A stretch of 64,000 bases of DNA from Myxococcaceae bacterium (GCA_046351675.1 JAXLYB010000002.1:64001-128000), one strand, 5' to 3'; numbered from the stretch's first letter, positions 3,109-57,880 are shown. Notes: generated by a model from the sequence alone, not told the origin. Made by a program: numbers and translations.

Positions 3109-3279
3109 CTCCCTCTCCTCCCGAGGAGGAGAGGGTTGGGGTGAGGAGTGAAGCATCGAGGCGCCAACGGGCTCATGCCTCGAGCGGTGGTGCTTTCCTC
3201 TCTGCTTCAGTTCAGCCGCACTCTGCGCTCCGGGGGTTCACTCCTCACCCCGACCCTCTCCTCTGAAGAGGAGAGGGAG
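3109..3279. repeat. inverted pair of the palindromic repeat family (units 3109..3148 and 3239..3279) flanking a ~90 nt spacer that itself contains a hairpin
   Basis: CTCCCTCTCCTCCCGAGGAGGAGAGGGTTGGGGTGAGGAG ... CACTCCTCACCCCGACCCTCTCCTCTGAAGAGGAGAGGGAG. It lies between the convergent gene ends at 3097 and 3291. Confidence 0.85.
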
Positions 3280-3290
3280 TTCGCAGTTCG

Positions 3291-5828
3291 TCAGCGCCGG
3301 CGCCTTGCGAACAGCGCACCGAGCGCGAGCACGAGCAGCGGCTCCGCGCCAACGCCCGAGCACCCACCACACCCGCCCTTCACCATCGACGGCTGCGTCG
3401 TCGCGCCCGTCTTCCGATACAGCGTGAGCGTCGCCGTCAGCGTCTGCCCCGTGGTCGCCGTCGCGGTCGCGGTGATGACGTTCTTCCCCTCGACCAACGG
3501 CACGGTCGCCGAGAACCCGCCACCACCGAGCAACTCAGCCGACACGTCATTCAACGTCACGCCGATGAGGTCCACGCCCGTCACCGTGCCGAAGATGGTC
3601 ACCGTCTCCGCGTTCACCGTCGACTCATCGGCCGGCTCGACGAACGTGAGCTCCGCGGCCGCGACCTCGTCGATGCCCGGCGTCAGCACCAGGTCGAGCG
3701 CCAACCGCGCATCGGCCGGCACCGTCACCGTCTCGGAGTGCGTGAGGAACCCGGTCTTCTTCACCACCACCAGGTAGTCCGCGGGCACCACCATCACCGG
3801 CGCGTAGTACGCCCCGCCCGCGTCGCTCATCACCGTCGACACCACGGTGCCGCTCGACGCCTCGCGCAGCTCGATGGACACACCCTCGAGGCGAGAGCTG
3901 TCCGCCGAGCTCGACACGAAGCCCGCCACGCCCGCGTTGAACGTCGCGGTGCTCGTCGCGCGGCCGGTGTTGTTCGCGCCATCGACCGCGGTCACCTCGA
4001 TGCTGTTGGTGCCGGGCTTCAGCTGCACCTCGACCTGGAACGCGCCGTTGGTGACCGGCACGTCGGTGCTCGCGCCACCATTGAGCGCCACCTTCACGGT
4101 CGCCACCGCGCCGCGGTCATCTGATGCGGTGCCCTTCAGGTCGATGCGCCCGAGGTCGAGGCTCGCCATGTTCGACGGGAAGCTGATGGCCACCATCGGC
4201 GCCTGCGTGTCGGCCGAGTTGGTCGTCGACAAGCCGACCGAGCCCCACACGGTCGCGTTCGCCGCGACGGTGCGTGACACCTGGTTCGCGACGTAGCCCG
4301 ACTTGGTGACGTTCACCGTGTACGTGCCGGGCGCGAGGTTGAAGAGGTACGCGCCGTCGGCCGCCGTGGTCTGCGTCTGCCCGCCCGCGGTCACCGTCGC
4401 GCCCGTGATGGCGACGTTCATGTTCGTCGGGTCGGCCGCGTTGTACGCGAAGATTTTCCCGCGCAGCACGCCGGTCGCCGCCGAGGCGTTGATCTCCATC
4501 GAGCCCCAGGTCTGCGTGCCCGCCGTCACCGTGCGCGTCACCGAGGTGCCCGCGAAGCCCGACTTGCTCACCGTCGCCGTGTACGAGCCCGGCGCGAGCG
4601 TGAACTGGTACAGGCCGTTAGCACCGGTGGTGACCGTCTGGCTGCCCACCGTCACCGTCGCGCCCGAGACGCGGTTGGCGGAGTTGCCGCCCGTGTAGAT
4701 GGCGCCGATCAAAACGCCGGTGGTGGTGGTCGGCGTCGAGCCGTTCACCAGGTTCATGTACTTCGTCCAGTTCCAGCCGCTGCCCGGGTCGGTGTGACCG
4801 CCGGTGTTGCACTGCGAGGGCACCTCGGCGTGGCCGATGATGTGCGAGCGGTTGCGCGGGATGTTGTGGCGATCGGCGATCCACCGCGTGAGCTTGGCGG
4901 ACTCCGTGTACATCGCGTCGGTGTACCAGGTGGCCGGATCGTTCACGAAACCCTCGTGCTCGATGCCGACCGAACGGCCGTTGTAACACTGCGCGTGCCA
5001 CGCGGTGTTCTTGTGCTCGACCATCTGGGTGATCTGCCCGTCGCTCGAGCGCACGATGTAGTGCGACGACACGTTGGAGTTCGGGTTCTGGAACCACGAC
5101 TTCGTGCCCGCGTAGCTGCCCTGCATGGTGTGAATCAGCACGAACTCGTACGTGCTGCGGCCCGAGGTGAAGTTCGGCGACGCGACCCAGCCGACCGCGC
5201 CCGGGTACTCGACGACGCCGTCACGCCGCGCGCTCGCGACCGGCGCGTGCGTGCGCCACGAGCTCGCCAGCGGCGCCTGCACCACGCCGTTGCCCGTGAA
5301 GCCCTGCTCGAGCGCGAGGAAGACGTCGGCGGCGTAGTCGGTCGAGGCCACCACCGAGTCGAAGCCCGGGTAGTACGAGACCGCGACGTACCAGTCGCCC
5401 AGCTCCTGCGAATCGAGCACCGGCTGGGAGCGCCGCGCGTCGTCGAAGAGCGCGCGCAACACCGCCGCCGCGCCGCGCACGTTGGCCGCCGAGTCGACGC
5501 GCAAGCGCCCTTCGGTCACGCCCGTCAGCGCCGCCGCGCGGCCGAGCGTGTCGACGCCATCGCGCCGGCTGAGCTGCATCACGCCCACGCCGCCCGTGCC
5601 CGACTCGAGGTTGGCGCGCGTGGACAACCGCGTCTCGACCCACGCGATGCTCTTCAGCACCGCGACCGGCACCTGGTACTCGCGCGAGGCCTGGGTGAAG
5701 GCCGTCTCCAGCGCGGTGTTGGTCGACGCCGAAGGGGCTGGAGTGACCGTCGAATCCGCGGGGTCGACCCCGCATGCCGACAGCACGGAGACCAGCGACA
5801 CCAGCACGGCCACGAGTGAGCGCTTCAT
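3291..5828 (-). CDS. multidomain secreted cell-wall hydrolase lipoprotein: SLT-like lytic transglycosylase + N-acetylmuramoyl-L-alanine amidase (amidase_2/PGRP) + CarboxypepD_reg/Ig-like repeats
   Basis: 845 aa. Signal peptide with lipobox (LVSVLSACG). There is an SLT-like motif (ESGTGGVGVMQLS) and amidase_2-like motifs (EFVLIHTMQGSYAGTKSWF...HYIVRSSDGQITQMV...GIEHEGF...HAEVPS...H). Multiple beta-sandwich repeats follow (GATVTVGSQTVTTGANGLYQF, GATVTAGGQTQTTAADGAYLF), and the protein ends with an alanine-rich C-terminal anchor-like tail. Confidence 0.7.
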   Translation of the reverse strand: MKRSLVAVLVSLVSVLSACGVDPADSTVTPAPSASTNTALETAFTQASREYQVPVAVLKSIAWVETRLSTRANLESGTGGVGVMQLSRRDGVDTLGRAAALTGVTEGRLRVDSAANVRGAAAVLRALFDDARRSQPVLDSQELGDWYVAVSYYPGFDSVVASTDYAADVFLALEQGFTGNGVVQAPLASSWRTHAPVASARRDGVVEYPGAVGWVASPNFTSGRSTYEFVLIHTMQGSYAGTKSWFQNPNSNVSSHYIVRSSDGQITQMVEHKNTAWHAQCYNGRSVGIEHEGFVNDPATWYTDAMYTESAKLTRWIADRHNIPRNRSHIIGHAEVPSQCNTGGHTDPGSGWNWTKYMNLVNGSTPTTTTGVLIGAIYTGGNSANRVSGATVTVGSQTVTTGANGLYQFTLAPGSYTATVSKSGFAGTSVTRTVTAGTQTWGSMEINASAATGVLRGKIFAYNAADPTNMNVAITGATVTAGGQTQTTAADGAYLFNLAPGTYTVNVTKSGYVANQVSRTVAANATVWGSVGLSTTNSADTQAPMVAISFPSNMASLDLGRIDLKGTASDDRGAVATVKVALNGGASTDVPVTNGAFQVEVQLKPGTNSIEVTAVDGANNTGRATSTATFNAGVAGFVSSSADSSRLEGVSIELREASSGTVVSTVMSDAGGAYYAPVMVVPADYLVVVKKTGFLTHSETVTVPADARLALDLVLTPGIDEVAAAELTFVEPADESTVNAETVTIFGTVTGVDLIGVTLNDVSAELLGGGGFSATVPLVEGKNVITATATATTGQTLTATLTLYRKTGATTQPSMVKGGCGGCSGVGAEPLLVLALGALFARRRR

Positions 5829-5913: not shown

Positions 5914-6495
5914 CTACGACCAACTCACCTCGAACGTCACGTCCTGCCTCGTGAAGTCCGACGCGCTCAGCTTCACCGTGCCCGTCGCGCCGAGCGTGGT
6001 GAGCACCGCTTCGAGGAGGCCCTGGCGGTACTCCGCGATGAACGAGGTGCGGTCGGTCGTGTACGGGAGGTAGCGCTCGTTGGTGAAGGTGCGAATGCGC
6101 ACTGACTTCGGCCCCAGGTCGGCGATGTCGGCCTCGAGGTAGTTGGTCGCCTGCTTGAAGTTGCGGCCCATGCGCTGGAGCGTGCGCTTGACGCCGATGA
6201 GCTTCGCCACGGCGAGCACGGCCAGACCGAGCGGCGTCTGCACGAAGCCTTCCATGAAGAGGTGGCCCAACTGCCGCGTGCGCTCGGCGGGAGGGAGCCG
6301 CGGCAACAACTTCTCTCCCGTCAGCCGAATCACCTCGACCCACGTGTCCATCGGGTACGCGGCCTGCACCTTCGCGAGGTCGACGCCGAGCTTCTTGAGC
6401 TCGCCGCGCAGCTCGGGCGTCACGCGGTCCTTGAGCGCCTTCACCAGCGCCTCGAAGGCGTGACCGAAGACGACGGGCTGGAGCTCGGGGTTCAC
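5914..6495 (-). CDS. TIGR02265 / DUF2378 family protein (second paralog)
   Basis: 193 aa. It is similar throughout to 2202..2735 (for example GFVQTPLGLAVLAVAKLIGVKRTLQRMGRNFKQATNYLEADI versus GFQQTLVGRALFPLLKLIGLKRGLERISRSFQSGNDFLDMKL). Confidence 0.7.
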   Translation of the reverse strand: MNPELQPVVFGHAFEALVKALKDRVTPELRGELKKLGVDLAKVQAAYPMDTWVEVIRLTGEKLLPRLPPAERTRQLGHLFMEGFVQTPLGLAVLAVAKLIGVKRTLQRMGRNFKQATNYLEADIADLGPKSVRIRTFTNERYLPYTTDRTSFIAEYRQGLLEAVLTTLGATGTVKLSASDFTRQDVTFEVSWS

Positions 6496-6508
6496 GGCGC
6501 GCGCGACG

Positions 6509-8618: not shown

Positions 8619-9479
8619 TCAAGGCAGCAACGCCTCAGCAAAGCGGGCGGCCGCGGCGGGCTCGTGTCGAAAGAAGAGCTCTGGCTCGACGAGCTCGAGC
8701 TCCATCACGTGCAGGCGGCCTTGCCAGTCCACCGCGTCGACGCGGCCGTAGGTGCTGCCGGGCGCGGCTTGCGCGAGCAGCGCGGTGGCTTCGTCGATCT
8801 GCGCGCGCGTCGGCTGGAACGGTGAAGACTCGCCGCCGTAGTCGTGTTGCACGCGCCAGTCGCCCGACTTCGGGCGCTTGTGCACCGCGTGGCTGAAGAC
8901 GCCACCGAAGAAGATGAACGAGTACTCGCCCGTCGCGATGGACGGCACGAAGGGCTGCACCAGCCAGACTTCTCCGTCGGCGAGGGGCACTTCGGCGGCG
9001 CGGGTGAGCACCGCGTCACACTCGGCGGCGTCGAAGACCTGCGCGCCGACGGCGTTGGCCGTGAAGGCCGGCTTGAGCACGGCGCGCTTCCAGTTGCGCT
9101 CGGTGAGCACTGAGGGAAGGCGATGGAGCGTCTCTCGGGTGAGCTCGACGGTCGGCACCACGGCGACGTTCTTCGCGGCGAGCTTCGCGAGGTAGGTCTT
9201 GTCGGCGAAGGCCGCGAGCATCGGCTGCGGGTTCACCACGCGGGCGCGCGTCTGGGTGAGTTCGGTCGCGATGAAGCGGCGGAAGGCGTCTCGGTGGTGG
9301 AACCAGTCCCACGGGTTGCGCATCACGACGACGTCGAAGGTGTCCAGCGTGGTGGTGGGGGCGCGCGTCCAGGAGAGGGGGACGACTTCGTGGCCTCGGC
9401 GGCGGAGCTCGGTGGCGGCGAGTTGGTCGTCGTCCCAGAGGTGGGGGAACTTGTCGCAGGTCAGGAGTCCAACACGCAT
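8619..9479 (-). CDS. ATP-grasp domain protein (RimK/glutathione-synthetase-like ligase)
   Basis: 286 aa. The general ATP-grasp layout is present, with a small N-terminal domain and a central region that includes LKPAFTANAVGAQVF and WLVQPFVPSIATGEYSFIFFGG. Confidence 0.5.
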   Translation of the reverse strand: MRVGLLTCDKFPHLWDDDQLAATELRRRGHEVVPLSWTRAPTTTLDTFDVVVMRNPWDWFHHRDAFRRFIATELTQTRARVVNPQPMLAAFADKTYLAKLAAKNVAVVPTVELTRETLHRLPSVLTERNWKRAVLKPAFTANAVGAQVFDAAECDAVLTRAAEVPLADGEVWLVQPFVPSIATGEYSFIFFGGVFSHAVHKRPKSGDWRVQHDYGGESSPFQPTRAQIDEATALLAQAAPGSTYGRVDAVDWQGRLHVMELELVEPELFFRHEPAAAARFAEALLP

Positions 9480-9510
9480 GGCGAAGCCATATCTCGCTGA
9501 GGGGCCGACG

Positions 9511-9578
9511 GGTTACTCCTCACCCCGACCCTCTCCTCTGAAGAGGAGAGGGAGAGCGGTGATACGACGCGCATCACC
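9511..9578. repeat. palindromic repeat unit followed by a second small hairpin (GGTGAT-ACGACGCGC-ATCACC), ending 1 nt before the ATG at 9580
   Basis: GGTTACTCCTCACCCCGACCCTCTCCTCTGAAGAGGAGAGGGAGAG then CGGTGATACGACGCGCATCACC. It occupies the divergent promoter region between 9479 (-) and 9580 (+). Confidence 0.8.
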
Positions 9579-9579
9579 C

Positions 9580-10524
9580 ATGCGCGCGCTGCAGCTCAAA
9601 TCGTTCGGCGGCCCCGAGGTCCTCCACTTCACCGACGTCTCCGTCGGCGCCCCGGGCGAGAACGAGGTGCTCATCGACGTCTACTCGGCCGGCCTCAACT
9701 TCGCCGACACCGAGCGCCGCCGCGGCCTCTACCTCGCTGATCAACCGCTCCCCGCGACGCTCGGCCTCGAGGGCAGCGGCGTCGTCACCGCGCTGGGCGC
9801 AAAGGTGCCCGAAGTGTGGCTCGGCCGCCGCGTCGCCTTCCTCGCCAACGGCGCCTGCGCTGATCAATGCCTCGCGCCGGTCAGCAAGCTCATCCACCTC
9901 CCCGACTCGCTCGACTTCGCGCGCGGCGCCGCCTTTCCCGTGCAGTGGCTCACCGCGTGGCACCTCGTGCACACCGTCGCGAAGCTGCAGCGCAACGAGC
10001 GCGTGGTCATCCAGTCGGCCGCCGGCGGTGTCGGCCAGGCGCTCGTACAGCTCGCCCGCGAAGCCGGCGCGCAGGTGACCGCCGTCGTCTCGCGCGACGC
10101 GAAGAAAGACGTGGTCCGCGCGCTGGGCTGTGCCGACGTGCGCCTCCGCGGAGACGCCCTGCCCGTCGTCGACGTGGTGCTCGAAGCAGTCGGCGCCGAG
10201 GTCGTCACCTCGACCATCGCCGCGCTCACGCCCTTCGGCCGCTGGGTGAACTACGGCACTTCGTCCGGCCCGCTGCCCGCGCTCGACGTCGACAAGCTCC
10301 TCTTCCCCAAGTCACTCTCGTTCAGCTCGTACTGGCTGCGCAGCGAGCACCCGCCCGGGACGTGGGACACCGGCGTGCGTGAAGTGCTGGCGCGCCTCGT
10401 CGACGGCCGCGCGCGCATGCTCGTCACCAGCGCCCCGCTCGAAGACGCGGCGAAGTGGCACCGCCGGCTCGAGGGCGGCCTCACCACCGGCAAGGTCGTC
10501 TTTCAGGTGCGCGGCACGAGGTGA
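9580..10524 (+). CDS. MDR-family zinc-binding dehydrogenase / quinone oxidoreductase
   Basis: MRALQLKSFGGPEVLHFTDVSVGAPGENEVLIDVYSAGLNFAD... is a classic Qor/MDR N-terminus. The GxGxxG NAD(P)-binding segment is VIQSAAGGVGQALVQLAR. The ATG at 9580 is in frame inside the longer ORF 9199..10524, whose 5' part crosses the repeat. Confidence 0.75.
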   Translation: MRALQLKSFGGPEVLHFTDVSVGAPGENEVLIDVYSAGLNFADTERRRGLYLADQPLPATLGLEGSGVVTALGAKVPEVWLGRRVAFLANGACADQCLAPVSKLIHLPDSLDFARGAAFPVQWLTAWHLVHTVAKLQRNERVVIQSAAGGVGQALVQLAREAGAQVTAVVSRDAKKDVVRALGCADVRLRGDALPVVDVVLEAVGAEVVTSTIAALTPFGRWVNYGTSSGPLPALDVDKLLFPKSLSFSSYWLRSEHPPGTWDTGVREVLARLVDGRARMLVTSAPLEDAAKWHRRLEGGLTTGKVVFQVRGTR

Positions 10525-33813: not shown

Positions 33814-33814
33814 A

Positions 33815-33924
33815 CTCCCTCTCCTCTTCAGAGGAGAGGGTCGGGGTGAGGAGTAACCAAACTCCCACGCCCGAAGTCGGCCCCTCACCCCAGCCCTCTC
33901 CCCGCTTTCGCAGGGAGAGGGAGA
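33815..33924. repeat. inverted pair of palindromic repeat units (33815..33858 and 33881..33924) starting 2 nt after the VWA stop
   Basis: CTCCCTCTCCTCTTCAGAGGAGAGGGTCGGGGTGAGGAGTAACC ... CCCCTCACCCCAGCCCTCTCCCCGCTTTCGCAGGGAGAGGGAGAG. The second unit is a stem variant with a longer loop. Confidence 0.85.
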
Positions 33925-48828: not shown

Positions 48829-48840
48829 GAGAGAGGCGTC

Positions 48841-49404: not shown

Positions 49405-49494
49405 CGCCCCAGCAGGAGACCGCTGGAAACACCAGCGCCCCGACCTCCGTGCTGGAGATCGAGGCGCTCATGCACCGCAGAAAAGAAGCAGGGG

Positions 49495-50222: not shown

Positions 50223-50930
50223 GTGCAACTGAATCACGCGCAGCGCGAGCTCACGGTCAAGATCGTCTATTACGGGCCTGGTCTGTCGGGGAAGACGACC
50301 AACCTGCAGATGATCCACCAGCGCACCAGCCCCGAGGTGCGCGGGCGGCTGCTGACCGTCGAGACCCACGACGACCGCACGCTCTTCTTCGACCTGCTGC
50401 CGGTGTTCTTCAGCACCGCCAACGGCTTCAAGGTGAAGGTGAAGCTCTTCACGGTGCCGGGCCAGGTGATTCACAACGCCACGCGCCGCATCGTGCTGCA
50501 GGGCGCCGACGGCGTGGCCTTCATCGCCGACAGCCGCCGCGCCGCCGCGCAGGAGAACAACGCGTACTGGAAGAACCTGCAGGAGAACATGCGGGAGAAC
50601 AACCTCGACCCCGCGCAGGTGCCGATCGTCATCCAGTACAACAAGCGCGATCTCCCCGACACGAAGACCGACGCGGAGATCGAAGAGACGAAGAAGAAGG
50701 GCAAGGAACCGGTCGTCGGCGCCATCGCGATTCGCGGCGTCGGCGTGCTCGAGACGCTCTTCGCGGTGCTGCAGACCGCCTACCGCTCGCTCGAAGCGCG
50801 CGCGGGCCTGAGCAAGGCCATCGGCCTGACCGAGCGCGAGTTCCTCACCCAGGTGTTCGCCAACATCGACGTCGCCGGCACCGAGCTCGAGAAGGTGTTG
50901 CCTCCGCGCGCCCCGGGGGCCCGCCCGTGA
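50223..50930 (+). CDS. MglA-family Ras-like small GTPase with ~40 aa C-terminal extension
   Basis: KIVYYGPGLSGKTTNL is the MglA-type P-loop (MglA has KIVYYGPGLCGKTTNL). LFTVPGQV corresponds to the MglA Gln82 region, and the G4 motif is IQYNKRDL. GTG 50223 gives 12 residues before KIVYYGPG, the same as MglA. The ORF is open from GTG 50169. Confidence 0.7.
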   Translation: MQLNHAQRELTVKIVYYGPGLSGKTTNLQMIHQRTSPEVRGRLLTVETHDDRTLFFDLLPVFFSTANGFKVKVKLFTVPGQVIHNATRRIVLQGADGVAFIADSRRAAAQENNAYWKNLQENMRENNLDPAQVPIVIQYNKRDLPDTKTDAEIEETKKKGKEPVVGAIAIRGVGVLETLFAVLQTAYRSLEARAGLSKAIGLTEREFLTQVFANIDVAGTELEKVLPPRAPGARP

Positions 50931-50944
50931 GACAGGGTGAGTCG

Positions 50945-52402
50945 GTGCTCCAGCGGCGCATCTCCCTCTCGGAGATGCTCGATACCGAGTCGTTCACCGA
51001 GGTGGTGAAGGGCTTCGTCGAGCTCTACCGCGTCGGCATCAAGGTGTTCGACGACAAGGGCGGGAAGATCGCCGACATCAAGATCGGCAACGGCGACTTC
51101 TGCGGCTACGTCTTCAGCTTCCCCGAGGGGCGGCGGCGCTGCACCGCGACGGTCGGCCGCGTGAAAGACGGCCCGCTCGGCACCACGCACGGCGCGCGGC
51201 TGCCGGTGCTCGAGCCCGACCTCGTGCCCACCAGCAAGGGCATGCTCACCGTGCCCTGCTTCACCGGGCTGCGGTACCTCATCGTGCCGATCTTGTGGGA
51301 AGGCGACACGCTCGGCCGCGTGGTGTTCGGCCCGTTCTTCCCCGAAGACCTCGCGCAGTTCCCGCCGCGCACGCTGACCGAGATCTCCGAGGGGCTCGAC
51401 GTCGGCAACGCGAAGGCGCTCGTCGAGAAGGTGCGCAAGGCGCCCGAGGGCACCATCGCGCGGGTGATGCTGCACTTCGGCCAGCTGCTGCAGACGATGC
51501 TGTTCGGCGGCCAGAAGATGTACCTGACCTCGCAGCTGCACATCGAGGCGACGCTCGACAGCAACCGCGAGCTCGAAGAGCGGAACAAGAAGCTCGAAGA
51601 CGCGAACGTGAAGCTGAAGGAGCTCGATCGCCTCAAGAGCGCCTTCCTCGCGACGGTCAGCCACGAGCTGCGCACGCCGCTGACCAGCATCATCGGCTAC
51701 AGCGAGATGCTGGCTGAAGGATTGGCCGGTGCGCTCAACGGTGAGCAGCTCGACTACGTGCGCACCATCATGGAGAAGGGCGAGACGCTGCTGAAGCTGA
51801 TCAGCAGCATCCTCGACATCTCGCAGATCGAAGCCGGCAAGGTGCGCCTCAACTTCGAGCCGATGGACGCGGTGGAGCTGATCAACTCGTCGGTCAGCTC
51901 GCTCAAGCCGCAGACGCAGAAGAAGGGCGTGCTGCTCGAGGCGAAGGCGCCGCAGAAGATGCCGCAGGTCACGGGCGATCGAGACCGCCTGCGCCAGGTC
52001 ATCGTCAACCTGCTGACCAACGCGATGAAGTTCACGCCCAAGGGCGGCCGCATCGCGGTGACGCTGACCGAGGTGCAGCACCAGCCCGACCTGAACGCGC
52101 CGGGCTACCGCATTCTCGTGGAGGACTCGGGCGTCGGCATTCCGGCTGATCAGTTCGACAAGATCTTCCAGAGCTTCTACCAGGTCGATTCGTCGTCGAC
52201 GCGCGAGTACGGCGGCGCGGGCCTGGGGCTCGCCATCGTGAAGAGCTTCGTCGAAGGGCACGGCGGCGTAGTGCGCGTCGCGTCGGAGGTCGGCAAGGGC
52301 AGCCGCTTCACGCTCGTGCTCCCTGCGACGCCGGGCAACACCGCGCAGGCGTTCATCGCGCCGCCCGTCACGTCGGTCGGCCCGGTCGACGATCGCTTCT
52401 GA
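50945..52402 (+). CDS. sensor histidine kinase (HisKA + HATPase_c) with N-terminal cytoplasmic sensory domain (PocR-like, Cys-containing)
   Basis: The H-box is LATVSHELRTPLTSIIGYSEM, the N-box is NLLTNAMKFTP, and the G-boxes are DSGVGIP and GGAGLGLAIVKS. The start is GTG 50945 or ATG 50975. The long ORF from 50186 is a frame artefact over the GTPase gene. No response regulator is adjacent. Confidence 0.8.
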   Translation: MLQRRISLSEMLDTESFTEVVKGFVELYRVGIKVFDDKGGKIADIKIGNGDFCGYVFSFPEGRRRCTATVGRVKDGPLGTTHGARLPVLEPDLVPTSKGMLTVPCFTGLRYLIVPILWEGDTLGRVVFGPFFPEDLAQFPPRTLTEISEGLDVGNAKALVEKVRKAPEGTIARVMLHFGQLLQTMLFGGQKMYLTSQLHIEATLDSNRELEERNKKLEDANVKLKELDRLKSAFLATVSHELRTPLTSIIGYSEMLAEGLAGALNGEQLDYVRTIMEKGETLLKLISSILDISQIEAGKVRLNFEPMDAVELINSSVSSLKPQTQKKGVLLEAKAPQKMPQVTGDRDRLRQVIVNLLTNAMKFTPKGGRIAVTLTEVQHQPDLNAPGYRILVEDSGVGIPADQFDKIFQSFYQVDSSSTREYGGAGLGLAIVKSFVEGHGGVVRVASEVGKGSRFTLVLPATPGNTAQAFIAPPVTSVGPVDDRF

Positions 52403-52405
52403 GAA

Positions 52406-52447
52406 CTCCCTCTCCCTGCGGAGCGGGGAGAGGGTCGGGGTGAGGGG
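52406..52447. repeat. palindromic repeat unit (CCC/GGG stem variant, 8-nt loop) in the 52-nt gap after the HK stop
   Basis: CTCCCTCTCCCTGCGGAGCGGGGAGAGGGTCGGGGTGAGGGG. It contains a spurious in-frame ATG (52440) for the downstream gene. Confidence 0.85.
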
Positions 52448-52454
52448 CCGAACC

Positions 52455-53276
52455 ATGTACAGCCGCGTGAAGTTTCTGATCCTCGCCCTGATCGTCGCAG
52501 CGCCAGCCCTCGCGCAGCGTGGCGAGCCCCTCACCTTCGGCACCTCGTACCGCCTCGTCTCGAAGAACCTCCGCGGCGAAGCAAAGCACCTCAACGTGCT
52601 CCTGCCGCCCGACTACGAAAAATCAGGCGCGAAGTACCCGGTGCTCTACCTGCTCGACGGCGGCGCTGATCAAGACTTCTTCCACATCGCCGGCCTGGTG
52701 CAGATTCTCATCGGCAATGGCTCGATGGCCCCGCTCATTCTCGTGGGCGTCGAGAGCGGCGACCGCAAGCGCGACCTCACCTTCCCCACGAAGGTCCCCG
52801 ACGAGCAGAAGCTCGCGAAGGTGGTGGGGCAATCAGCCGACTACCGCTCGTTCTTCGTGACCGAGGTCTTCCCCTTCGTCGAGCGCACCTTCCGCACCAC
52901 GGGCGAGCGCGGGCTGATGGGAGAGTCGCTGGCCGGGCTCTTCGTGCTCGAGACGTTCTTCCTCGCGCCCAACCTCTTCGACGCCTGGCTCGCGGTGAGC
53001 CCGAGCCTCTGGTGGAACGAGAAGTCGCTGGTGAAGGACGCGGCCGTGGCGCTCAAGAAGTTCCCCACGCAGCCCGAGCGGCTGGTGGTGGCGGTGGAGG
53101 AAGAAGACTTCAACGAAGGCGTCAGCGCGCTGCAGAAGGTGCTCGAGGCGGGCGCGCCGAAGAGCGTCAACGCCACGGTGAAAATCTTCCCGGGCGAGAC
53201 GCACGGCACGGTGTTCCACCCCGCGGCGCTCGACGGGCTGCGGCGGTTGTTCCCCGGTCCACCCCCGGCGAAGTGA
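52455..53276 (+). CDS. secreted esterase of the 'putative esterase'/enterochelin-esterase-like alpha/beta-hydrolase family
   Basis: ATG 52455 gives MYSRVKFLILALIVAAPALA as a signal peptide. YPVLYLLDGG...LMGESLAGLF is the family signature with its serine elbow. Confidence 0.55.
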   Translation: MYSRVKFLILALIVAAPALAQRGEPLTFGTSYRLVSKNLRGEAKHLNVLLPPDYEKSGAKYPVLYLLDGGADQDFFHIAGLVQILIGNGSMAPLILVGVESGDRKRDLTFPTKVPDEQKLAKVVGQSADYRSFFVTEVFPFVERTFRTTGERGLMGESLAGLFVLETFFLAPNLFDAWLAVSPSLWWNEKSLVKDAAVALKKFPTQPERLVVAVEEEDFNEGVSALQKVLEAGAPKSVNATVKIFPGETHGTVFHPAALDGLRRLFPGPPPAK

Positions 53277-53293
53277 GTTAGCCTTCGCGTCAC

Positions 53294-54742
53294 ATGAACG
53301 TGTTGTTCCTGAGTTCCGAGGTGGCGCCCTTCGCGAAGACGGGCGGCCTGGGTGACGTGGCCTCGGCGCTCCCGCGCGCGCTGCACCGGCGGGGGCACGA
53401 CGTGCGCGTGTTCATGCCGATGTACTCGCGCATCGAGCAGCAAAAGTTCCGCTTCCGGTCGATCGACTCGCTGCGCGGCATGAAGGTGATGTTCGGCACG
53501 CGCAGCTTCGAGGTGAGCATCTTCGCGGCCGCCCTGCCCGGCTCGAGCCTCGAGGTCTTCTTCGTGCACTGCCCGCAGCTCTACGGCCGGCACGCCATCT
53601 ACGCGCACGACGGCGACGAGCACCTGCGCTTCCTGGTGCTCTGTTACGCGGCGCTCGAGGCCGCCCAGCGCATGCGGTTCGCGCCCGACGTGGTGCACTG
53701 CAACGACTGGCAGACGGCGATGGTGCCGTTGCTCTTGAAGACGCGCTTCGCGTGGGACGGCGCCATCTTCGGCCGCACCAAGTCGGTGCTCACCATTCAC
53801 AACCTGAACTACCAGGGCACCTTCCCCGCGAGCGTGCTGCCCGAGACGGGGCTGCTGCGCGACAAGCACCTGCTCCACCAGGACCAGCTGAAGGACGGGC
53901 GCATCAACTTCCTGCTGCACGGCATTTTGTACGCGAACGCCGTCACCACGGTGAGCCCGACCTACGCGCGGGAAATTCGTACGCCGGAGTTCGGCGCGTG
54001 GCTCGACCCCTTCTTGCGCGCGCGCGAGTCGAGCGTGTTCGGCATCTTGAACGGCGTCGACTACGACGAGTGGAGCCCGCAGGCCGACCGCCTCATCCCC
54101 GCGCGCTACGACGTCGACCACCTCGAGGGGAAAGAGCGGTGCAAGGCGGCGCTGCTGTCACGCGCGCGGCTGCCGTCACTGCCGGGCGTGCCGCTGCTGG
54201 GCATCGTGTCGCGGCTGGCGGGCCAGAAGGGCTTCGACCTGTTGCCCGACGCGCTCGGGCTCGCGCTGCGCGAGGGCAAGTTCCAGCTCGTGGTGCAGGG
54301 CAGCGGCGAGAAGCGGTTCGAGCGGCTGTTCCACGAGCTGCGCGCGCGTTTCCCGCGGCAGGTGCGCTTCCAGACGCAGTTCGACAACGCGCTCGCGCAC
54401 TGGATCCAGGCCGGCAGTGACTTCTTCCTGATGCCCAGCAAGTACGAGCCGTGTGGGCTGACGCAGCTCTACGCGCTCAAGTACGGCACGGTGCCCATCG
54501 TGCGGAAGACGGGCGGGCTCGCCGACACCGTGCAGCTGTGGTCGCCGCGCACCAACCAGGGCACCGGCATCGTGTTCGACGACTACAACGCGAAGGCCGT
54601 GCACTGGGCGCTCGAGGCGGCGTTCAACATCTACCGCGACCGGCCGGTGTACCGGCGGCTGCAGCGCAACGGCATGGTGCAGGACTTCTCGTGGGAGCAC
54701 CAGGTGCAGAAGTACGAGGGGCTCTACTCCGCGCTCCGTTGA
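53294..54742 (+). CDS. glgA: glycogen synthase (ADP-glucose type, GT5)
   Basis: MNVLFLSSEVAPFAKTGGLGDVASALPRAL is the canonical GlgA N-terminus with the KTGGL motif. 482 aa. Confidence 0.9.
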   Translation: MNVLFLSSEVAPFAKTGGLGDVASALPRALHRRGHDVRVFMPMYSRIEQQKFRFRSIDSLRGMKVMFGTRSFEVSIFAAALPGSSLEVFFVHCPQLYGRHAIYAHDGDEHLRFLVLCYAALEAAQRMRFAPDVVHCNDWQTAMVPLLLKTRFAWDGAIFGRTKSVLTIHNLNYQGTFPASVLPETGLLRDKHLLHQDQLKDGRINFLLHGILYANAVTTVSPTYAREIRTPEFGAWLDPFLRARESSVFGILNGVDYDEWSPQADRLIPARYDVDHLEGKERCKAALLSRARLPSLPGVPLLGIVSRLAGQKGFDLLPDALGLALREGKFQLVVQGSGEKRFERLFHELRARFPRQVRFQTQFDNALAHWIQAGSDFFLMPSKYEPCGLTQLYALKYGTVPIVRKTGGLADTVQLWSPRTNQGTGIVFDDYNAKAVHWALEAAFNIYRDRPVYRRLQRNGMVQDFSWEHQVQKYEGLYSALR

Positions 54743-54772
54743 TCAGGCCGGCGCTGGTACCCTCGCGCCACC

Positions 54773-55996
54773 ATGCACGTCGTCTTCATCGAGCCCCGCT
54801 TCCCCGCCAACCAGCGCTTCTTCGTGCGCGCGCTCAAAGAAGTCGGCGCGACCGTCACCGCCATCGGAGAAGGCAGCAAGGACTCGCTGCCCGGCGACCT
54901 GCGCCACGCGCTGACGCACTACGAGCAGGTGAGCTCGGTGGTGAACGAGGCCGAGGTGTTCCGCGCGGCGAAGTTCATTCAATCGCGCGCGCGCATCGAC
55001 CGGCTCGAGGCGGTGGTCGAGGCGCACATCATGTCGACCGCCAAGGTGCGCGAGATGCTCGGCATCGAGGGCACGTCGGTGAAGACCTCGTGGCTGTGCC
55101 GCGACAAGCCGTCGATGAAGGCCGCGCTGCGCGAGGCGGGCATTCCGTGCGCGCAGTCGACCGCCGCGTCGAGCGTCGCGGAGGTCATCGAGTTCGCCAA
55201 GCAGGTCGGCTTCCCGCTCATCTTGAAGCCGCGTGACGGCGCCGGCGCGTCGGGCACGGCGCGGGTGAACTCCATCGCCGACGTGCAGCGCGCGGCGTCA
55301 GACCTCGGGCTCGATCGTGGCCGCTCGGTCGCCGTCGAGGAATTCATCGAGGGCCACGAGGGCTTCTACGACACCATCACCATCGGCGGCCGCGTGGTGC
55401 ACGAGTTCGCCACGCACTACTACCCGAACGTGCTCGAGGCGATGCGCACGCGGTGGATCAGCCCGCAGTTCATCACCACCAACCGCATCGACAGCGCGCC
55501 CGGCTACCAGGAGCTCAAGGTGCTGGGCCAGAAGGTGGTGCGCGCGCTGAACATCGGCACCTCGGCGACGCACATGGAATGGTTCGTGGGGCCCAAGGGG
55601 CTCAAGTTCTCCGAGATCGGCTGCCGCCCGCCCGGCGTGCGCGCGTGGGACCTCTACAACGTCGGCAACGACGTCGACCTCTACCGCGAGTGGGCGATGG
55701 CCATCGTGCACGGCCGCCCGGGTGCGCGGCTCTCGCGGCGCTTCGCGACCGGCATCGTCGCGCTGCGGCCCACGCAAGACGGCCGCATCGCCGGGTACCA
55801 CGGCCTCGACAAGGTCGAGCGCGCGTTCGGCCAGTGGATGATCGACGCGCACATTCCGCCCGAGGGCTCGCCGACCCAGCCGGTCGAGGCCGGCTACATG
55901 GCCAACGCGTGGATGCGCTTCAAGCACCCCGACTACGACCAGCTGCGGCAGATGCTGAACACGGTCGGTGAGACGGTGAAGGTCATCGCCCGCTAA
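54773..55996 (+). CDS. ATP-grasp domain enzyme (carboxylate-amine ligase-like)
   Basis: 407 aa. The central ATP-grasp segment is FPLILKPRDGAGASGTARV...EEFIEGHEGFYDTI. Its position after glgA is notable. Confidence 0.5.
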   Translation: MHVVFIEPRFPANQRFFVRALKEVGATVTAIGEGSKDSLPGDLRHALTHYEQVSSVVNEAEVFRAAKFIQSRARIDRLEAVVEAHIMSTAKVREMLGIEGTSVKTSWLCRDKPSMKAALREAGIPCAQSTAASSVAEVIEFAKQVGFPLILKPRDGAGASGTARVNSIADVQRAASDLGLDRGRSVAVEEFIEGHEGFYDTITIGGRVVHEFATHYYPNVLEAMRTRWISPQFITTNRIDSAPGYQELKVLGQKVVRALNIGTSATHMEWFVGPKGLKFSEIGCRPPGVRAWDLYNVGNDVDLYREWAMAIVHGRPGARLSRRFATGIVALRPTQDGRIAGYHGLDKVERAFGQWMIDAHIPPEGSPTQPVEAGYMANAWMRFKHPDYDQLRQMLNTVGETVKVIAR

Positions 55997-56035
55997 TCCC
56001 CCTCTCCCCCTGGGGAGAGGGTCGGGGTGAGGGGA
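55997..56035. repeat. palindromic repeat unit (CCCC/GGGG variant) between convergent gene ends
   Basis: TCCCCCTCTCCCCCTGGGGAGAGGGTCGGGGTGAGGGGAGT, starting 1 nt after the TAA at 55994..55996. Confidence 0.85.
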
Positions 56036-56036
56036 G

Positions 56037-56357
56037 TCACTTCACGAAGTACGAAAACGACACCGGCCCACCACGAGGCTGGTGCCCATCGTTCTTCCAC
56101 CCCTCGACGACTTCCTTCACGCACCGCACATCGCTCGCGCTGGCCTCGACCTTCACCACCCGCAAGTCGGGCCCCGACGAAAACTCGCCCTTCACGCTGA
56201 CCACCTCGTCCTTCGCGCTCGCCGGCGTGCACTTCGCGAGCGAGGGCAAGTTCGCGACGAGCCACGGCTTGAGCGCCGGCACGTTGAGCCCCTGCAGCGA
56301 CTTGAGCTGAGGGCCGGGAGCACCAGACAGCGCAAGCGCGGCCACGAGGGAGAGCAT
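56037..56357 (-). CDS. small secreted hypothetical protein (106 aa)
   Basis: Start at MLSLVAALALSGAPG (cat 56355..56357). The long ORF 56037..58085 upstream of this start is antisense to the FAD-oxidase gene. Confidence 0.45.
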   Translation of the reverse strand: MLSLVAALALSGAPGPQLKSLQGLNVPALKPWLVANLPSLAKCTPASAKDEVVSVKGEFSSGPDLRVVKVEASASDVRCVKEVVEGWKNDGHQPRGGPVSFSYFVK

Positions 56358-56417
56358 CAGGTGCGCTGATGATGCCACGGTCGACTCGCCGAGGCGGGGT
56401 GCTAGAGCGCGAACAGC

Positions 56418-57770
56418 ATGTCTGCGTCGCGCGTCGAGCTGTCGGGCTGGGGGCTGTACCCAAAGAGCTCGTGCGAGGTGCGCGAGCCCGAGACCGAAGC
56501 CGGCGTGCGCGCCGCGCTCGACCCCAACGGCACCATCGCCCGCGGGCTGGGCCGCTCGTACGGCGACGCGGCGACCAACGACCTCCGCGTGGTGCTCGAC
56601 ATGACGCGCATGGACCGCGTGCTCTCGTTCGACGAGGCCACGGGCGAGGTGCGCTGCGAGGCGGGCGTGTCGCTGTCGGCGCTCATCGAGCGCTTCGCGC
56701 CACGCGGCTTCTTCCCGCTCATCACGCCGGGCACGCGCTTCGTCACCGTCGGCGGGTGCATCGCCAACGACGTGCACGGCAAGGCGCACCACGCGCAGGG
56801 CTCGTTCCTCGAGTCGGTGAAGTCGATGCGCGTGCTGCTCGCCGACGGGCGCGTGGTGGAGTGCAGCCGCGAGCGCGAGGCCGACCTCTTCTTCGCGTCG
56901 TTCGGCGGCATGGGCCTGCTCGGGGTGATTCTCGAGGCCACGCTGCAGCTGCGGAAGGTGAGCACCACCTGGTTCCGCCAGCAGTCGTACGAGGGCCGCG
57001 ACCTCGACGAGCTGCTCGACCTGATGGCCGAGCACGACGCGCGCGTGCCGTACTCGGTGGCGAGCATCAACCCGCTGGCGACCGGGCGCTCGCTCGGAAC
57101 GGGCGTGTTGACCTGCGGCGACCACGCGCAGCCCGACGAGCTGCCCGCGAAGTTCCGCGCCCGTATGTTGGCCGTCGGTGGCGACGCGCTCCTCGACATT
57201 CCCGTGCGGCTGCCGGAGCTGACGCTCAACCCGCTCACCCTGCGCGTGGTGCACGCCGGCATTCGGCAGGTGATGTTGCGCGCCGCGCCGCTGGTGCACG
57301 CTGATCAGTTCTTCTACCCGCTCGATGGGCTGCTCTCGAACTGGAACCGCGGGTACGGGCGGCGCGGCTTCACGCAGTACCAGTTCGTGATTCCGAAGGC
57401 CGACGGGCCGAAGAACCTGCGCGCGTTGCTGACCACCATCGTGGAGGCGAAGCAGCTGCCGACGCTCAACGTGCTCAAGCGCATGGGGCCGGGGAACGCG
57501 GCGCCGCTGTCGTTCCCGATGGAGGGTTACACGCTGGCCATCGACTTTCCGATTCTGGGCGACACCGCTGAGCTGGCGCACCGGCTCGACGCGATGGTCG
57601 AGGACATGGGCGGGCGGATCTATCTCGGGAAGGACGCGTTCCTGCGGCCCGAGTCGTTCAATCGCATGTACCCGCGGCACGGGGAGTGGCGAGCGGTGAA
57701 GCGGCGGGTCGACCCGAATGAACTCTTCTCGTCCGACCTGTCGCGGCGCGTCGGTCTCACGGCGAGATAG
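56418..57770 (+). CDS. FAD-linked oxidoreductase (PCMH-type FAD-binding domain; DprE1/arabinono-lactone-oxidase-like)
   Basis: The FAD-binding PCMH motifs are ARGLGRSYGD and FVTVGGCIANDVHGKAHH. 450 aa. Confidence 0.65.
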   Translation: MSASRVELSGWGLYPKSSCEVREPETEAGVRAALDPNGTIARGLGRSYGDAATNDLRVVLDMTRMDRVLSFDEATGEVRCEAGVSLSALIERFAPRGFFPLITPGTRFVTVGGCIANDVHGKAHHAQGSFLESVKSMRVLLADGRVVECSREREADLFFASFGGMGLLGVILEATLQLRKVSTTWFRQQSYEGRDLDELLDLMAEHDARVPYSVASINPLATGRSLGTGVLTCGDHAQPDELPAKFRARMLAVGGDALLDIPVRLPELTLNPLTLRVVHAGIRQVMLRAAPLVHADQFFYPLDGLLSNWNRGYGRRGFTQYQFVIPKADGPKNLRALLTTIVEAKQLPTLNVLKRMGPGNAAPLSFPMEGYTLAIDFPILGDTAELAHRLDAMVEDMGGRIYLGKDAFLRPESFNRMYPRHGEWRAVKRRVDPNELFSSDLSRRVGLTAR

Positions 57771-57880
57771 CTCCCTCTCCTCTTCAGAGGAGAGGGTTGG
57801 GGTGAGGAGTAGACCGTCGAAGCGCTCAACAGTGGTTCTCTCCTCACCCCGGCCCTCTCCTCTGAAGAGGAGAGGGAGAG
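57771..57880. repeat. inverted pair of palindromic repeat units (57771..57810 and 57838..57880) around a 27-nt spacer, directly after the TAG at 57768..57770
   Basis: CTCCCTCTCCTCTTCAGAGGAGAGGGTTGGGGTGAGGAGT - AGACCGTCGAAGCGCTCAAC... - CTCCTCACCCCGGCCCTCTCCTCTGAAGAGGAGAGGGAGAG. Confidence 0.85.

Follow-up and report, generated by a model that had tools for sequence, protein, structure and literature searches.

The window, the whole stretch of DNA analysed, comprises 64,000 nucleotides of Myxococcaceae bacterium (GCA_046351675.1, JAXLYB010000002.1:64001-128000). The host is an uncultured myxobacterium, and its GlgA is 89% identical to proteins of 'Archangium sp.' MAGs. No transposase is found among the ~56 gene calls and ARAGORN detected no tRNA in the window, as a first-pass annotation of the sequence had noted, while scanning both strands of the 64 kb against Rfam at gathering thresholds gave 0 families. 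Dispersed between the genes are 17 copies of a short repeat, all of which contain the hairpin core CCCTCTCC[T/C]C-loop-G[A/G]GGAGAGGG. The repeat family is real, as 32 arm matches were observed in the window versus 0.40 expected from shuffles, and a covariance model built from the window copies (R1) recovered exactly the same 17 loci and 0 others at E ≤ 1.

Repeat units in the window

The oriented unit is ~38 nt long: a pyrimidine arm and a purine arm enclose a loop, and a short turn leads from the purine arm into a purine tail. Its consensus is CT, CCCTCTCC(T/C)C, a loop of 2-8 nt, G(A/G)GGAGAGGG, a turn of 2-3 nt and GGGTGAGG(A/G)G. Each copy had previously been described as a complete palindrome of ~45 nt. 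However, the 13-nt outer segment, T[C/T]GGGGTGAGG[A/G]G, is one-sided in 16 copies and missing in one (30433), and it mirrors the purine arm rather than serving as a stem arm. As the tail occurs on one side only, the units are oriented, and R1 scores are strand-asymmetric (42-68 bits on one strand versus 15-27 bits on the opposite strand). Loops do vary between copies, with TTCA/TGAA, CTCA/TGAG and CCGAG/CTCGG each being a single loop seen from either orientation. Likewise, there is a second subfamily in which both stem arms are altered together, and the 16 oriented units comprise ten T-type units, five full C-type units and one C-type unit with a truncated tail. Copies within a subfamily are near-identical, and their flanks are unrelated. 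The units are as follows (coordinates, strand, description, R1 score):

3108..3149, +, unit 1: T-type, CCCTCTCCTC ccgag GAGGAGAGGG TT GGGGTGAGGAG; left half of the composite 3108-3280; 64 bits
3240..3280, -, unit 2: T-type; 10 nt past the stop of the amidase-domain gene 3291-5828(-) and sense to it; 67.2 bits
9515..9555, -, unit 3: T-type, solo; between the divergent 8619-9479(-) and ADH gene 9580-10524(+); 67.5 bits
23904..23944, +, unit 4: T-type, solo; tail directly followed by the TAA ending ORF 23173-23946; 65.4 bits
27541..27582, -, unit 5: T-type, solo; 8 nt past the stop of ORF 27591-28010(-), upstream of an APH-family gene; 65.7 bits
30354..30395, +, unit 6: T-type; divergent region between a ceramidase-like gene and a radical-SAM gene; 65.4 bits
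30430..30457, unoriented, unit 7: core hairpin only, T-type arms, tail absent on both sides; 28.6-30.8 bits, both strands
33814..33854, +, unit 8: T-type; begins right at the end of the stop of the VWA/YfbK gene 32242-33813(+); 67.2 bits
33880..33924, -, unit 9: C-type, CCCTCTCCCT gcgaaagc GGGGAGAGGG CT GGGGTGAGGGG; canonical G4 motif; tail-to-tail with unit 8, spacer 26-27 nt; 53.3 bits
36961..37002, +, unit 10: C-type; the TGA of ORF 36404-36997 falls inside the tail; 58.9 bits
37030..37070, -, unit 11: T-type; tail-to-tail with unit 10, spacer 27-29 nt; 5 nt past the stop of 37076-38305(-); 68 bits
41181..41221, +, unit 12: C-type; fits the strict published TMECO pattern; antisense, flanked by exbD and a TonB-dependent receptor gene, both (-); 62.5 bits
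41307..41341, +, unit 13: C-type, truncated tail (TCGGGGG...); direct repeat of unit 12; 41.7 bits
52405..52448, +, unit 14: C-type; occupies the 52-nt gap from a histidine-kinase stop (52402) to an esterase start (52455); identical copy in another contig of the same species; 55.7 bits
55997..56035, +, unit 15: C-type, 2-nt loop; fits the strict TMECO pattern; directly after the stop of an ATP-grasp gene (55996); 55.1 bits
57770..57810, +, unit 16: T-type; begins at the stop of the FAD-oxidase gene 56418-57770(+); 65.7 bits
57839..57879, -, unit 17: T-type; tail-to-tail with unit 16, spacer 28-30 nt; 65.5 bits

Five loci are inverted pairs (3111/3254, 30357/30433, 33817/33894, 36964/37044 and 57773/57853) with 27-92 nt between the tails, in agreement with the five pairs and the BIME-like composite architecture reported earlier. 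A core said to be common to three of the spacers is clear in two, but only partial in the third. As single-stranded DNA, the composite of units 16 and 17 has a predicted fold of -50.8 kcal/mol (z = -12). For solo units, DNA folding software, which models the hairpin only, gave -10.7 and -11.7 kcal/mol (z = -1.8 and -1.2).

Family membership and three-way covariation

The 17 copies almost certainly belong to an intergenic repeat family known as BoxC (Bergler 1992; Bachellier et al.), PIT (Hoyne/Maher 2000) or the TMECO intrastrand triplex motif (Holder et al. 2015, PMC4666352), whose E. coli oligonucleotides form a triplex in vitro as determined by CD and NMR. R1, derived from window copies only, matches the E. 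coli K-12 BoxC beside ycjD (32.5 bits, E 5e-9) as well as 168 sites at E ≤ 0.001 across 100 loci of many phyla. Matches to the junction motif come from alpha-, beta-, gamma- and delta-proteobacteria, Verrucomicrobia, Planctomycetes, Bacteroidetes, Chloroflexi, Cyanobacteria, Acidobacteria, Deinococcus and others, and the complementary pyrimidine arm accompanies it in the great majority of 134 matches; the family is thus neither lineage-specific nor confined to myxobacteria. Like the published elements, the window units display the strand order pyrimidine arm, loop, purine arm, short turn and mirrored purine strand, a nearly identical core (CCCTCTCCC / GGGAGAGGG / GGGTGAGGG), and intergenic copies occurring solo or as inverted pairs with no fixed orientation to genes. 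Over 367 loci, the commonest arrangement is tail-to-tail, 25-38 nt apart.

The published TMECO pattern is CCCTCNCCC-N3-6-GGGNGAGGG-N3-GGGNGAGGG, and the finder of its authors tolerated a mismatch and mixed triads (PMC4666352). Taken as a strict regular expression, which is an operational pattern and not a definition, it fits 2/17 units (41184 and 56000), and the remaining units miss it only by loop length or by a compensated T-A•A triad. This additional isomorphic triad sets the T-type variant, 10/16 oriented units in the window and widespread in metagenomes, apart from published TMECO. Further differences are the turn, which is TC/TT/CC/CT+G in the window versus TTA/CCG types in the published motifs, and the host, a myxobacterium. 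The mirror-symmetric purine tract and purine-motif triads also recall the polypurine mirror repeats of H-DNA, but in the present units the pyrimidine partner belongs to the same strand, and a triplex therefore needs one DNA strand and no supercoil-driven unpairing of the duplex (PMC4666352).

The strand order and the mirrored purine third strand of a class II purine motif are present in 16/17 copies, one of them with a truncated tail. In the window, one triad invariably sets the ten T-type units apart from the five full C-type units at all three of its positions (T-A•A versus C-G•G), and in the mixed dimers 33817/33894 and 36964/37044, arms and tail agree within each unit but not between partners. 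The two subfamilies could descend from two master copies and hence represent a single event. Yet the covariation recurs in other taxa. In raw counts that ignore kinship, the third-strand base is A or T in 19/24 cases where the usual C-G pair has become T-A, compared to 12/519 where the pair is C-G, and moving the register by one base reduces 19/24 to 0/24 and 3/24. Variant triads occur at four positions (1, 3, 9 and 10) in unrelated taxa, and at least eight further purine-arm variants each have their own mirrored third strand. Such independently recurring three-way compensation is more in keeping with a triplex than with a plain hairpin or a G-quadruplex. The earlier view of a selected, structured and compensated element is therefore upheld, except that compensation spans three strands and not two; together with the asymmetry of the unit, this is why the palindrome model fails.

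For the window units, we infer a class II purine-motif intrastrand triplex in single-stranded DNA from the sequence and from three-way covariation, the fold determined in vitro being that of the E. coli version studied by others. The arms would pair as a 10-bp Watson-Crick hairpin, in whose major groove the tail would fold back antiparallel onto the purine arm (triads G•G-C, A•A-T and T•A-T). No protection was seen by DMS footprinting of E. coli in vivo (PMC4666352). The two co-resident subfamilies, one fully compensated triad apart, may be regarded as a natural experiment in sequence, and with the independent events in other phyla they provide an evolutionary argument that selection keeps the three-stranded fold, rather than the hairpin alone or a G-quadruplex.

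Placement, multiplication and competing explanations

All 17 units are intergenic or touch ORF ends only. Most copies had been said to begin 0-5 nt after a stop codon, which holds for 5/17 with respect to supported stops; within 10 nt of one, the number rises to 7/17, or 8 if the uncertain ORF 2723-3097 is included. This nearness is largely due to units filling very short intergenic gaps, e.g., the 52-nt gap 52403-52454. Two units overlap ORF ends, five lie upstream of genes and two are antisense inside the TonB/ExbBD operon. Regarding orientation, 9 units (10 with unit 4) of 16 oriented ones are sense and downstream of a co-oriented gene, 6 or 7 are antisense or upstream of genes, and solo units between co-directional genes split into 2 sense versus 2 antisense. 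A gene-orientation rule was for that reason rejected as evidence for a role in RNA.

The number of copies is conspicuous. The window holds 17 units per 64 kb, compared to 4 in 86 kb of syntenic DNA of relatives (GlgA identity 81-90%), ~5x fewer, and the expansion therefore looks recent in this myxobacterial lineage. Two orthologous sites in the relatives are occupied by diverged or partial units. Published TMECO surveys count at most 143 per genome, with 1 in M. xanthus DK1622. At 1 per 3.8 kb, the density in the window, previously called far higher than that of typical REPs, is indeed very high for a BoxC-type family, but REP-rich genomes reach comparable values. A burst to ~1 copy per 4 kb while relatives have few is typical of a mobilised element.

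Could the units act at the RNA level, as mRNA 3'-end hairpins that terminate transcription or block 3'-5' exonucleases? The 10-bp GC-rich stem is stable, the sense units downstream of genes include five starting within 5 nt of a supported stop, and both units of the convergent gene pairs at 3111/3254 and 36964/37044 are sense. Nevertheless, the stem is followed by TCGGGGTGAGG with no T-run, as an intrinsic terminator would have, and 0/10 units between 23 and 42 kb are among the 8 terminator-like sites of that region, 8 being the shuffle expectation. The antisense and upstream units, including the two in the TonB/ExbBD-receptor operon, do not fit such a role, and a hairpin would leave the conserved tail and its covariation with the purine arm unexplained. 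According to literature as cited in PMC4666352, PIT elements acted neither as promoters nor as terminators, and RNA does not adopt purine-motif triplexes. A function in termination or at mRNA 3' ends, as proposed in the first-pass annotation, is thus very unlikely. A switch between G-quadruplex, hairpin and duplex, in which the purine arm and tail supply four G-tracts, appears similarly remote. Such HPGQ motifs have been described in E. coli (Kaplan et al. 2016, PMC5100583), viewing the same E. coli sequences from the G-quadruplex side, and the published CD data for the E. coli motif are compatible with a G-quadruplex. The five full C-type units do hold the canonical G3+ N1-7 x4 motif, e.g., GGGGAGAGGGTCGGGGTGAGGGG. 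In contrast, all ten T-type units interrupt G-tracts 1 and 4 (GAGG...GGAG), so that the unit sequence alone permits a two-tetrad G-quadruplex at most; four tracts of ≥3 G within the unit, the HPGQ hallmark, are absent from all of them. Only a single T-type unit (27555) overlaps a canonical motif, for which flanking DNA is required. Thus, T-type units lose the three-tetrad G-quadruplex while retaining triad isomorphism. Moreover, the two G-to-A changes are paired with a C-to-T change in the pyrimidine arm, which a triplex needs and a G-quadruplex does not, and the same compensated pattern repeats in other taxa. The NMR spectrum of the E. coli oligonucleotide, with 18 imino signals, was read by its authors as that of a triplex and not a G-quadruplex (PMC4666352).

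The remaining alternative is an ordinary REP or MITE moved by a transposase (RAYT/IS200-like or another IS), where the hairpin alone matters and the tail differences hitch-hike between two master copies. Near-identical copies per subfamily in unrelated flanks, inverted dimers resembling BIMEs/REPINs or MITE ends and a lineage-specific expansion all speak for it, and the units indeed share with REP/BIME/REPIN elements that they are short, structured and intergenic, occur solo and as inverted dimers, and undergo lineage-specific bursts. Yet the window lacks a transposase or Y1_Tnp gene, and the units lack a REP head, whose tetranucleotides are of the GTAG/CGTC type. No target-site duplication was evident around the window units, and GAACT before or GAACC after some units was rejected as a candidate due to inconsistency across copies. 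Hitch-hiking can account neither for three-way changes that arose independently in unrelated phyla, at four triad positions, nor for the at least eight sequence variants with mirrored third strands. REPs, which are simple imperfect palindromes of 20-40 nt, also differ from the units in sequence and in fold, the latter involving three strands in BoxC-type repeats. In addition, the gene recurrently flanked by units encodes DUF559 and not a transposase. Transposase-driven REPs or MITEs are accordingly improbable. The explanation that best covers these observations, to which we assign a probability of about 70%, is that the units are BoxC/PIT/TMECO triplex repeats with REP-like behaviour that multiplied recently, possibly spread with the help of DUF559 proteins. 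The repeat family itself is already published; new here are the T-/C-type triad evidence, the myxobacterial burst and the candidate DUF559 partner.

A candidate partner protein

Neither a RAYT gene nor a DUF559 gene occurs in the window, and the latter is also absent from the myxobacterial (Archangium-labelled) loci examined. In other genomes, however, a DUF559 endonuclease gene is a recurrent neighbour of the units. Among loci selected solely for a unit, the stop codon lies at a unit, or no more than 21 nt from one, in 8/9 DUF559 ORFs. Conversely, in loci selected by protein only, exact inverted repeats of ≥13 nt flank the gene in 15/18 cases versus 0/60 decoy positions, and 25/48 DUF559 loci versus 15/73 decoy regions have a pyrimidine-purine hairpin plus mirrored third strand no farther than 300 nt away, the 25 positive loci all being within the 35 closest homologues. 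Isolates of Acinetobacter, Pseudomonas citronellolis, Cognatiluteimonas and E. coli show the arrangement, and a DUF559 gene between two units or ending in one also occurs in Variovorax and in metagenome and IMG/VR contigs. Different DUF559 subfamilies are flanked by different arm and third-strand variants, with the third strand mirroring its own purine arm. With a DUF559 from between T-type units as the query, a protein search matched Rokubacteria, Pseudomonas, Desulfarculus and others by name, and no match was named as myxobacterial.

DUF559 matches PDB 3HRL (E 2e-33) and, weakly, the homing-endonuclease domain 3R3P ('mobile intron protein', E 0.004). It is grouped with Vsr in PMC3424549 and belongs to the same fold family (PF04480) as Vsr and the Vsr-like (EDxHD) homing endonuclease I-Bth0305I. 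The parallel to REPs with RAYTs is that, in other taxa, the gene has its own repeats on its flanks and, where checkable (Acinetobacter), is single-copy, although the protein has a Vsr-like PD-(D/E)xK fold and is not an HUH/Y1 transposase. The window dimers have inverted ends, and the gene-carrying counterpart seen in other taxa encodes DUF559. We know of no activity or substrate of DUF559/YcjD, on BoxC units or otherwise. Nor was a DUF559-BoxC link found in the literature searched. By analogy with RAYT and REP, it could tentatively be proposed, at somewhat below even odds, that DUF559/YcjD proteins are the cognate partners of BoxC/TMECO-type triplex repeats and recognise the folded triplex, and that the 17 units of the window are non-autonomous and copied or maintained in trans.

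The fold may form whenever replication, transcription or repair leaves the DNA transiently single-stranded, and could then be recognised by a trans-acting protein, for which the DUF559 (YcjD, Vsr-like) endonuclease is the best candidate. Nicking at folded units might lead to copying of the units and to local genome instability, as has been reported at TMECO sites. The units act as REP-like non-coding DNA between genes, and on the DUF559 reading the gene-less solo units and tail-to-tail dimers would be non-autonomous elements. To our knowledge, no function, partner protein or spreading mechanism has been established for BoxC/TMECO since 1992. A DUF559 partner, if true, would give a function to a 30-year-old orphan repeat and an orphan protein family and explain the genome instability at BoxC/TMECO sites, and the candidate makes the partner question directly testable in E. 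coli (YcjD on BoxC DNA).

The dimer spacers could conceivably be remnants of a deleted DUF559 gene; compared with DUF559 modules from other taxa, the window spacers are without similarity. One conserved chromosomal site harbours the DUF559 gene in Acinetobacter, where it is therefore not visibly mobile. As a mere hint, confounded by phylogeny, BoxC number in E. coli may be related to the presence of ycjD, the region of which is found in 3,375 and lacking in 2,051 of 5,426 complete genomes.

Anatomy and placement of the repeat units

Dinucleotide-preserving shuffles predict 0.40 matches to the arm motif CCCTCTCCYC in the 64-kb window; 32 are present, and they pair into 17 hairpin cores that coincide exactly in position with the 17 copies of the first-pass annotation. 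The family is thus genuine and well above chance, and its structured, compensated character had been correctly sensed, while its architecture was misdescribed. Rather than being a complete palindrome, the unit carries the 13-nt "outer arm" T(C/T)GGGGTGAGG(A/G)G on one side in 16 copies and on both sides in none; with all copies printed in a common orientation, the segment is truncated in one of its 16 carriers and missing altogether from copy 30433. Units thus have an orientation, and a covariance model (R1, from alignment A1 of 15 window copies) recovers exactly the 17 sites, with 42-68 bits on one strand and just 15-27 bits on the other. Loops do differ between copies, and TTCA/TGAA, CTCA/TGAG and CCGAG/CTCGG are each a single loop in its two reading directions. 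The five inverted pairs are present, with tails 27-92 nt apart, along with one direct pair (41184/41310).

Instead of complementing the purine arm, the tail repeats it in mirror image (GAGGAGAGGG-TC-G-GGGTGAGGAG). If it folds back antiparallel onto the purine arm, ten triads result (eight G•G-C, one A•A-T and one T•A-T), and the predicted fold is a purine-motif triplex made of a single strand. Two subfamilies part at one triad, which is T-A•A in one and C-G•G in the other; all three of its positions differ, and the window holds no exception.

Unit subfamilies in the window (pyrimidine arm / purine arm / end of tail)
T-type, n = 10: CCCTCTCCTC / GAGGAGAGGG / ...GAGGAG
C-type, n = 5 full units: CCCTCTCCC(C/T) / GGGGAGAGGG / ...GAGGGG

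The tail of a sixth C-type unit is truncated. In neither mixed dimer (33817/33894 and 36964/37044) does a unit match the tail of its partner; each matches its own, and the conserved interaction is therefore intra-unit. Many tails are followed by a weakly conserved extension, (T/A)AACC and then a GTCGAAGCGCC-like stretch (3149-3165, 30395-30411, 37002-37030, 57810-57826 and 9499-9514), so that the true unit may be about 55 nt long; in dimers, both extensions overlap around a GCGC centre. GAACT occurs ahead of some units and GAACC behind them; read as a possible duplication, this proved inconsistent.

All 17 copies are intergenic or touch ORF ends only. The claim that most copies begin 0-5 nt after a stop codon holds for five (sense, within 5 nt of a supported stop codon) and not for the majority; seven sense copies start within 10 nt of a stop, or eight if the uncertain ORF 2723-3097 is counted, while five copies lie upstream of genes and two sit in antisense orientation between exbD and the gene for a TonB-dependent receptor. 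Much of this closeness arises because units fill very short gaps, as with the 44-nt model match 52405-52448 in the 52-nt gap 52403-52454. Given this mixed placement, the lack of a T-run after the stems of the window copies and 0/10 scored units being terminator-like, a terminator or mRNA-stabiliser role finds no support. Two window ORFs terminate on stop codons supplied by a unit.

Unit-supplied stop codons in the window
36995-36997: TGA inside the tail, stop of ORF 36404-36997
23944-23946: TAA just after a T-type tail, stop of ORF 23173-23946

As several DUF559 genes also end inside units, unit insertion can remodel C-termini; further unit-supplied stops lie at 1870-1872 of an Acinetobacter locus (L435) and at 3908-3910 of the E. 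coli fabI-ycjD-sapF segment (L368). Upstream of genes, the purine tail of unit 14 (GGGGTGAGGGG; region 52436-52457) stops 7 nt short of the esterase ATG (52455) and could double as the Shine-Dalgarno sequence. In L435, a sense unit stops 20 nt short of the DUF559 start codon.

Family membership and fold of the unit

BoxC was first noticed beside envM/fabI in E. coli and was redescribed as PIT elements and later as TMECO, with the published pattern CCCTCNCCC-N3-6-GGGNGAGGG-N3-GGGNGAGGG (Holder et al. 2015, PMC4666352). By CD and 1H-NMR, the same paper found the class II triplex to be stable in vitro, and it saw no protection in DMS footprints taken in vivo; it cites earlier studies in which neither promoter nor terminator activity was detected, and associates element sites with local genome variability. 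E. coli K-12 holds 23 copies, all intergenic, five as inverted pairs and without orientation bias; the highest published copy number is 143 (Enterobacter asburiae), and the supplement lists one copy for M. xanthus DK1622 (PMC4666352).

The window repeats are a new, unusually dense member of this family with a compensated-triad variant. The window-derived model matches the E. coli BoxC beside ycjD (E 5e-9). Only 2/17 window copies satisfy the strict published regex, the remainder missing it because of their loop length or the compensated triad, so that a 2015-style search would be expected to miss most such copies. The T-type is a variant and not a new kind; its junction is widespread in metagenomes of 46-75% G+C. 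The taxonomic range had also been misjudged: in a scan of one genome per species, the junction motif GGAGAGGGYYGGGGTGAGG was found at at least 120 loci, those listed being from alpha-, beta-, gamma- and delta-proteobacteria, Verrucomicrobia, Planctomycetes, Bacteroidetes, Chloroflexi, Cyanobacteria, Acidobacteria, Deinococcus and others, and the great majority of them have the complementary pyrimidine arm upstream. This spread over many phyla among the matches listed speaks against lineage specificity. The motif also occurs on IMG/VR contigs (L248-L367), with up to four units per contig among the matches listed, in contrast to the 2015 statement of no association with phages or plasmids; some of these matches may come from host DNA next to prophages.

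A DNA-level intrastrand triplex element with REP-like behaviour is the mechanism best supported by sequence comparison. Covariation was scored at pattern-free positions only, in 150 model matches from 100 loci plus the window copies. Where a normally C-G pair has turned T-A, A or T occupies the third strand in 19/24 cases, compared with 12/519 where the pair is C-G (Fisher's exact test without the window copies, p about 1e-10, ignoring kinship of the sequences), and sliding the third strand by one base reduces the 19/24 to 0/24 and 3/24. Compensated events occur at triads 1, 3, 9 and 10 in unrelated taxa (Dyella/Rhodanobacter, Variovorax, a verrucomicrobial MAG, a planctomycete MAG, Lentimicrobium, Acinetobacter and Agitococcus). 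A hairpin alone predicts no constraint on the tail. Folding software, which models the hairpin and not the third strand, gives -10.7 and -11.7 kcal/mol for solo units; for dimers it predicts long hairpins or structures with three helices, at -32 to -51 kcal/mol (z = -5 to -12). A G-quadruplex could likewise be considered as the conserved fold, a G-quadruplex-hairpin switch being the subject of Kaplan et al. 2016 (PMC5100583), and C-type units do contain a canonical three-tetrad motif. However, this motif is confined within the unit to the C-type; in the T-type, G-tracts 1 and 4 are broken while triad isomorphism is kept through a third change in the pyrimidine arm, which a quadruplex does not predict.

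DUF559 endonucleases as candidate partners

Across all fetched loci, adjacent units most often lie tail-to-tail, 25-38 nt apart, like the window dimers. A search for genes enclosed by inverted units returned one recurrent protein family, an ORF of 110-135 aa found in a Variovorax MAG, Acinetobacter portensis, a soil metagenome contig and an IMG/VR contig. Mutual identity is 40-48%, and every one of the ORFs belongs to DUF559 (PF04480, E 1e-32 to 1e-39), a family that hits PDB 3HRL ("endonuclease-like protein") and has a weak match to the Vsr-like homing-endonuclease domain 3R3P. The E. coli member is YcjD, whose gene adjoins fabI, the site of the first BoxC description. The distance from ycjD to a downstream BoxC unit is 168 nt in K-12, where a CCCTCTCCC arm also codes for the C-terminal SPSP of YcjD and the loop provides the stop codon. 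No literature link of DUF559 or YcjD to BoxC was found.

In loci ascertained by units only (2.65 Mb), a unit lies no more than 21 nt from the stop codon in 8/9 DUF559 ORFs; it is usually antisense, and a second one usually lies upstream. In 48 IMG/VR loci picked by the DUF559 protein alone, the closest homologues have canonical units on their flanks. Exact inverted repeats of at least 13 nt join both flanks in 15/18 loci versus 0/60 decoy positions, and a pyrimidine-purine hairpin with a mirrored third strand lies within 300 nt in 25/48 loci versus 15/73 decoy regions, all 25 falling among the 35 closest homologues. More distant subfamilies have different repeats on the same plan, with at least eight purine-arm variants, each with its own mirrored third strand (e.g., GGGGCGGA/AGGTGGGG and GGGGGAGG/GGAGGGGG). 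Isolates with the arrangement include Pseudomonas citronellolis, Cognatiluteimonas telluris, and Acinetobacter gyllenbergii and relatives, where the TTA turn of the unit, read antisense, serves as the TAA stop of DUF559. On a metagenome contig (L217 3439-3475), a DUF559 gene is broken by a unit with tail sequences on both sides (CCCCTCATCC...CCTTCTCCCCC att GGGGGAGAAGG...GGATGAGGGG), while a closely related gene is intact in L189; this looks like direct evidence of unit insertion at new sites, even into the candidate partner gene. A survey found DUF559 enriched among predicted targets of inverted-repeat-mediated inversions (PMC9881135), which can be read as an independent trace of the flanking repeats.

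DUF559 endonucleases are tentatively proposed as the cognate proteins of BoxC/PIT/TMECO units, with a probability slightly below one half (about 0.45). The comparison is with REP repeats and their partner gene RAYT: the units behave like REPs, and in Acinetobacter the DUF559 gene occupies a conserved site, as would suit a domesticated, RAYT-like gene more than an element that jumps. For the 17 window copies, dependence on a DUF559 enzyme is inferred only by RAYT/REP analogy, since the window has no DUF559 gene, none was found in the few myxobacterial loci examined or by protein search, and the window dimer spacers have no similarity to DUF559 modules of other taxa.

Unit-flanked DUF559 genes also occur on IMG/VR contigs (L275/L383). 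Metagenomic contigs with these genes are mostly just 0.5-3 kb, as expected if assemblies break at flanking repeats. The ycjD/BoxC segment (L368) has at least 80% coverage in 3,375/5,426 complete E. coli genomes, and those without it include listed O157:H7, O145:H28 and APEC O78:H4 strains; in one strain the segment contains IS1. K-12 also carries a duplicated ycjD 3'-end remnant between gene and unit (L368 3824-3860 versus 3930-3966).

Genomic background and recent expansion

The window genes are ordinary chromosomal ones of myxobacterial flavour, including DUF2378 paralogues, Ser/Thr kinases and a TonB/ExbBD operon. Proteins of "Archangium sp." MAGs share 89% identity with the window GlgA, and two metagenome contigs match the window at 99.5-99.6% identity. 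In four relatives (GlgA 81-90% identical), the model finds 4 units in 86 kb of syntenic DNA versus 17 in the 64-kb window. At orthologous sites, a diverged unit follows the histidine-kinase gene in relative L126 and a partial unit follows the ATP-grasp gene in relative L125, with no unit at these two sites in the other relatives. The family therefore has an old presence at some sites, together with a recent multiplication of near-identical copies in this lineage.

The glgA neighbourhood (48600-57900) is heavily rearranged between the close relatives L123, L125, L126 and L127, which, as judged from this one region, would fit the genome variability reported near TMECO sites. The esterase gene is present in the window only, without a counterpart in the compared relatives, and in other relatives glgA is separated from the kinase gene, or followed, by insertions of 5-8 kb. 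Finally, two DUF2378 paralogues (2202-2735 and 5914-6495) lie on opposite strands, flanking a large amidase/CarboxypepD_reg gene.
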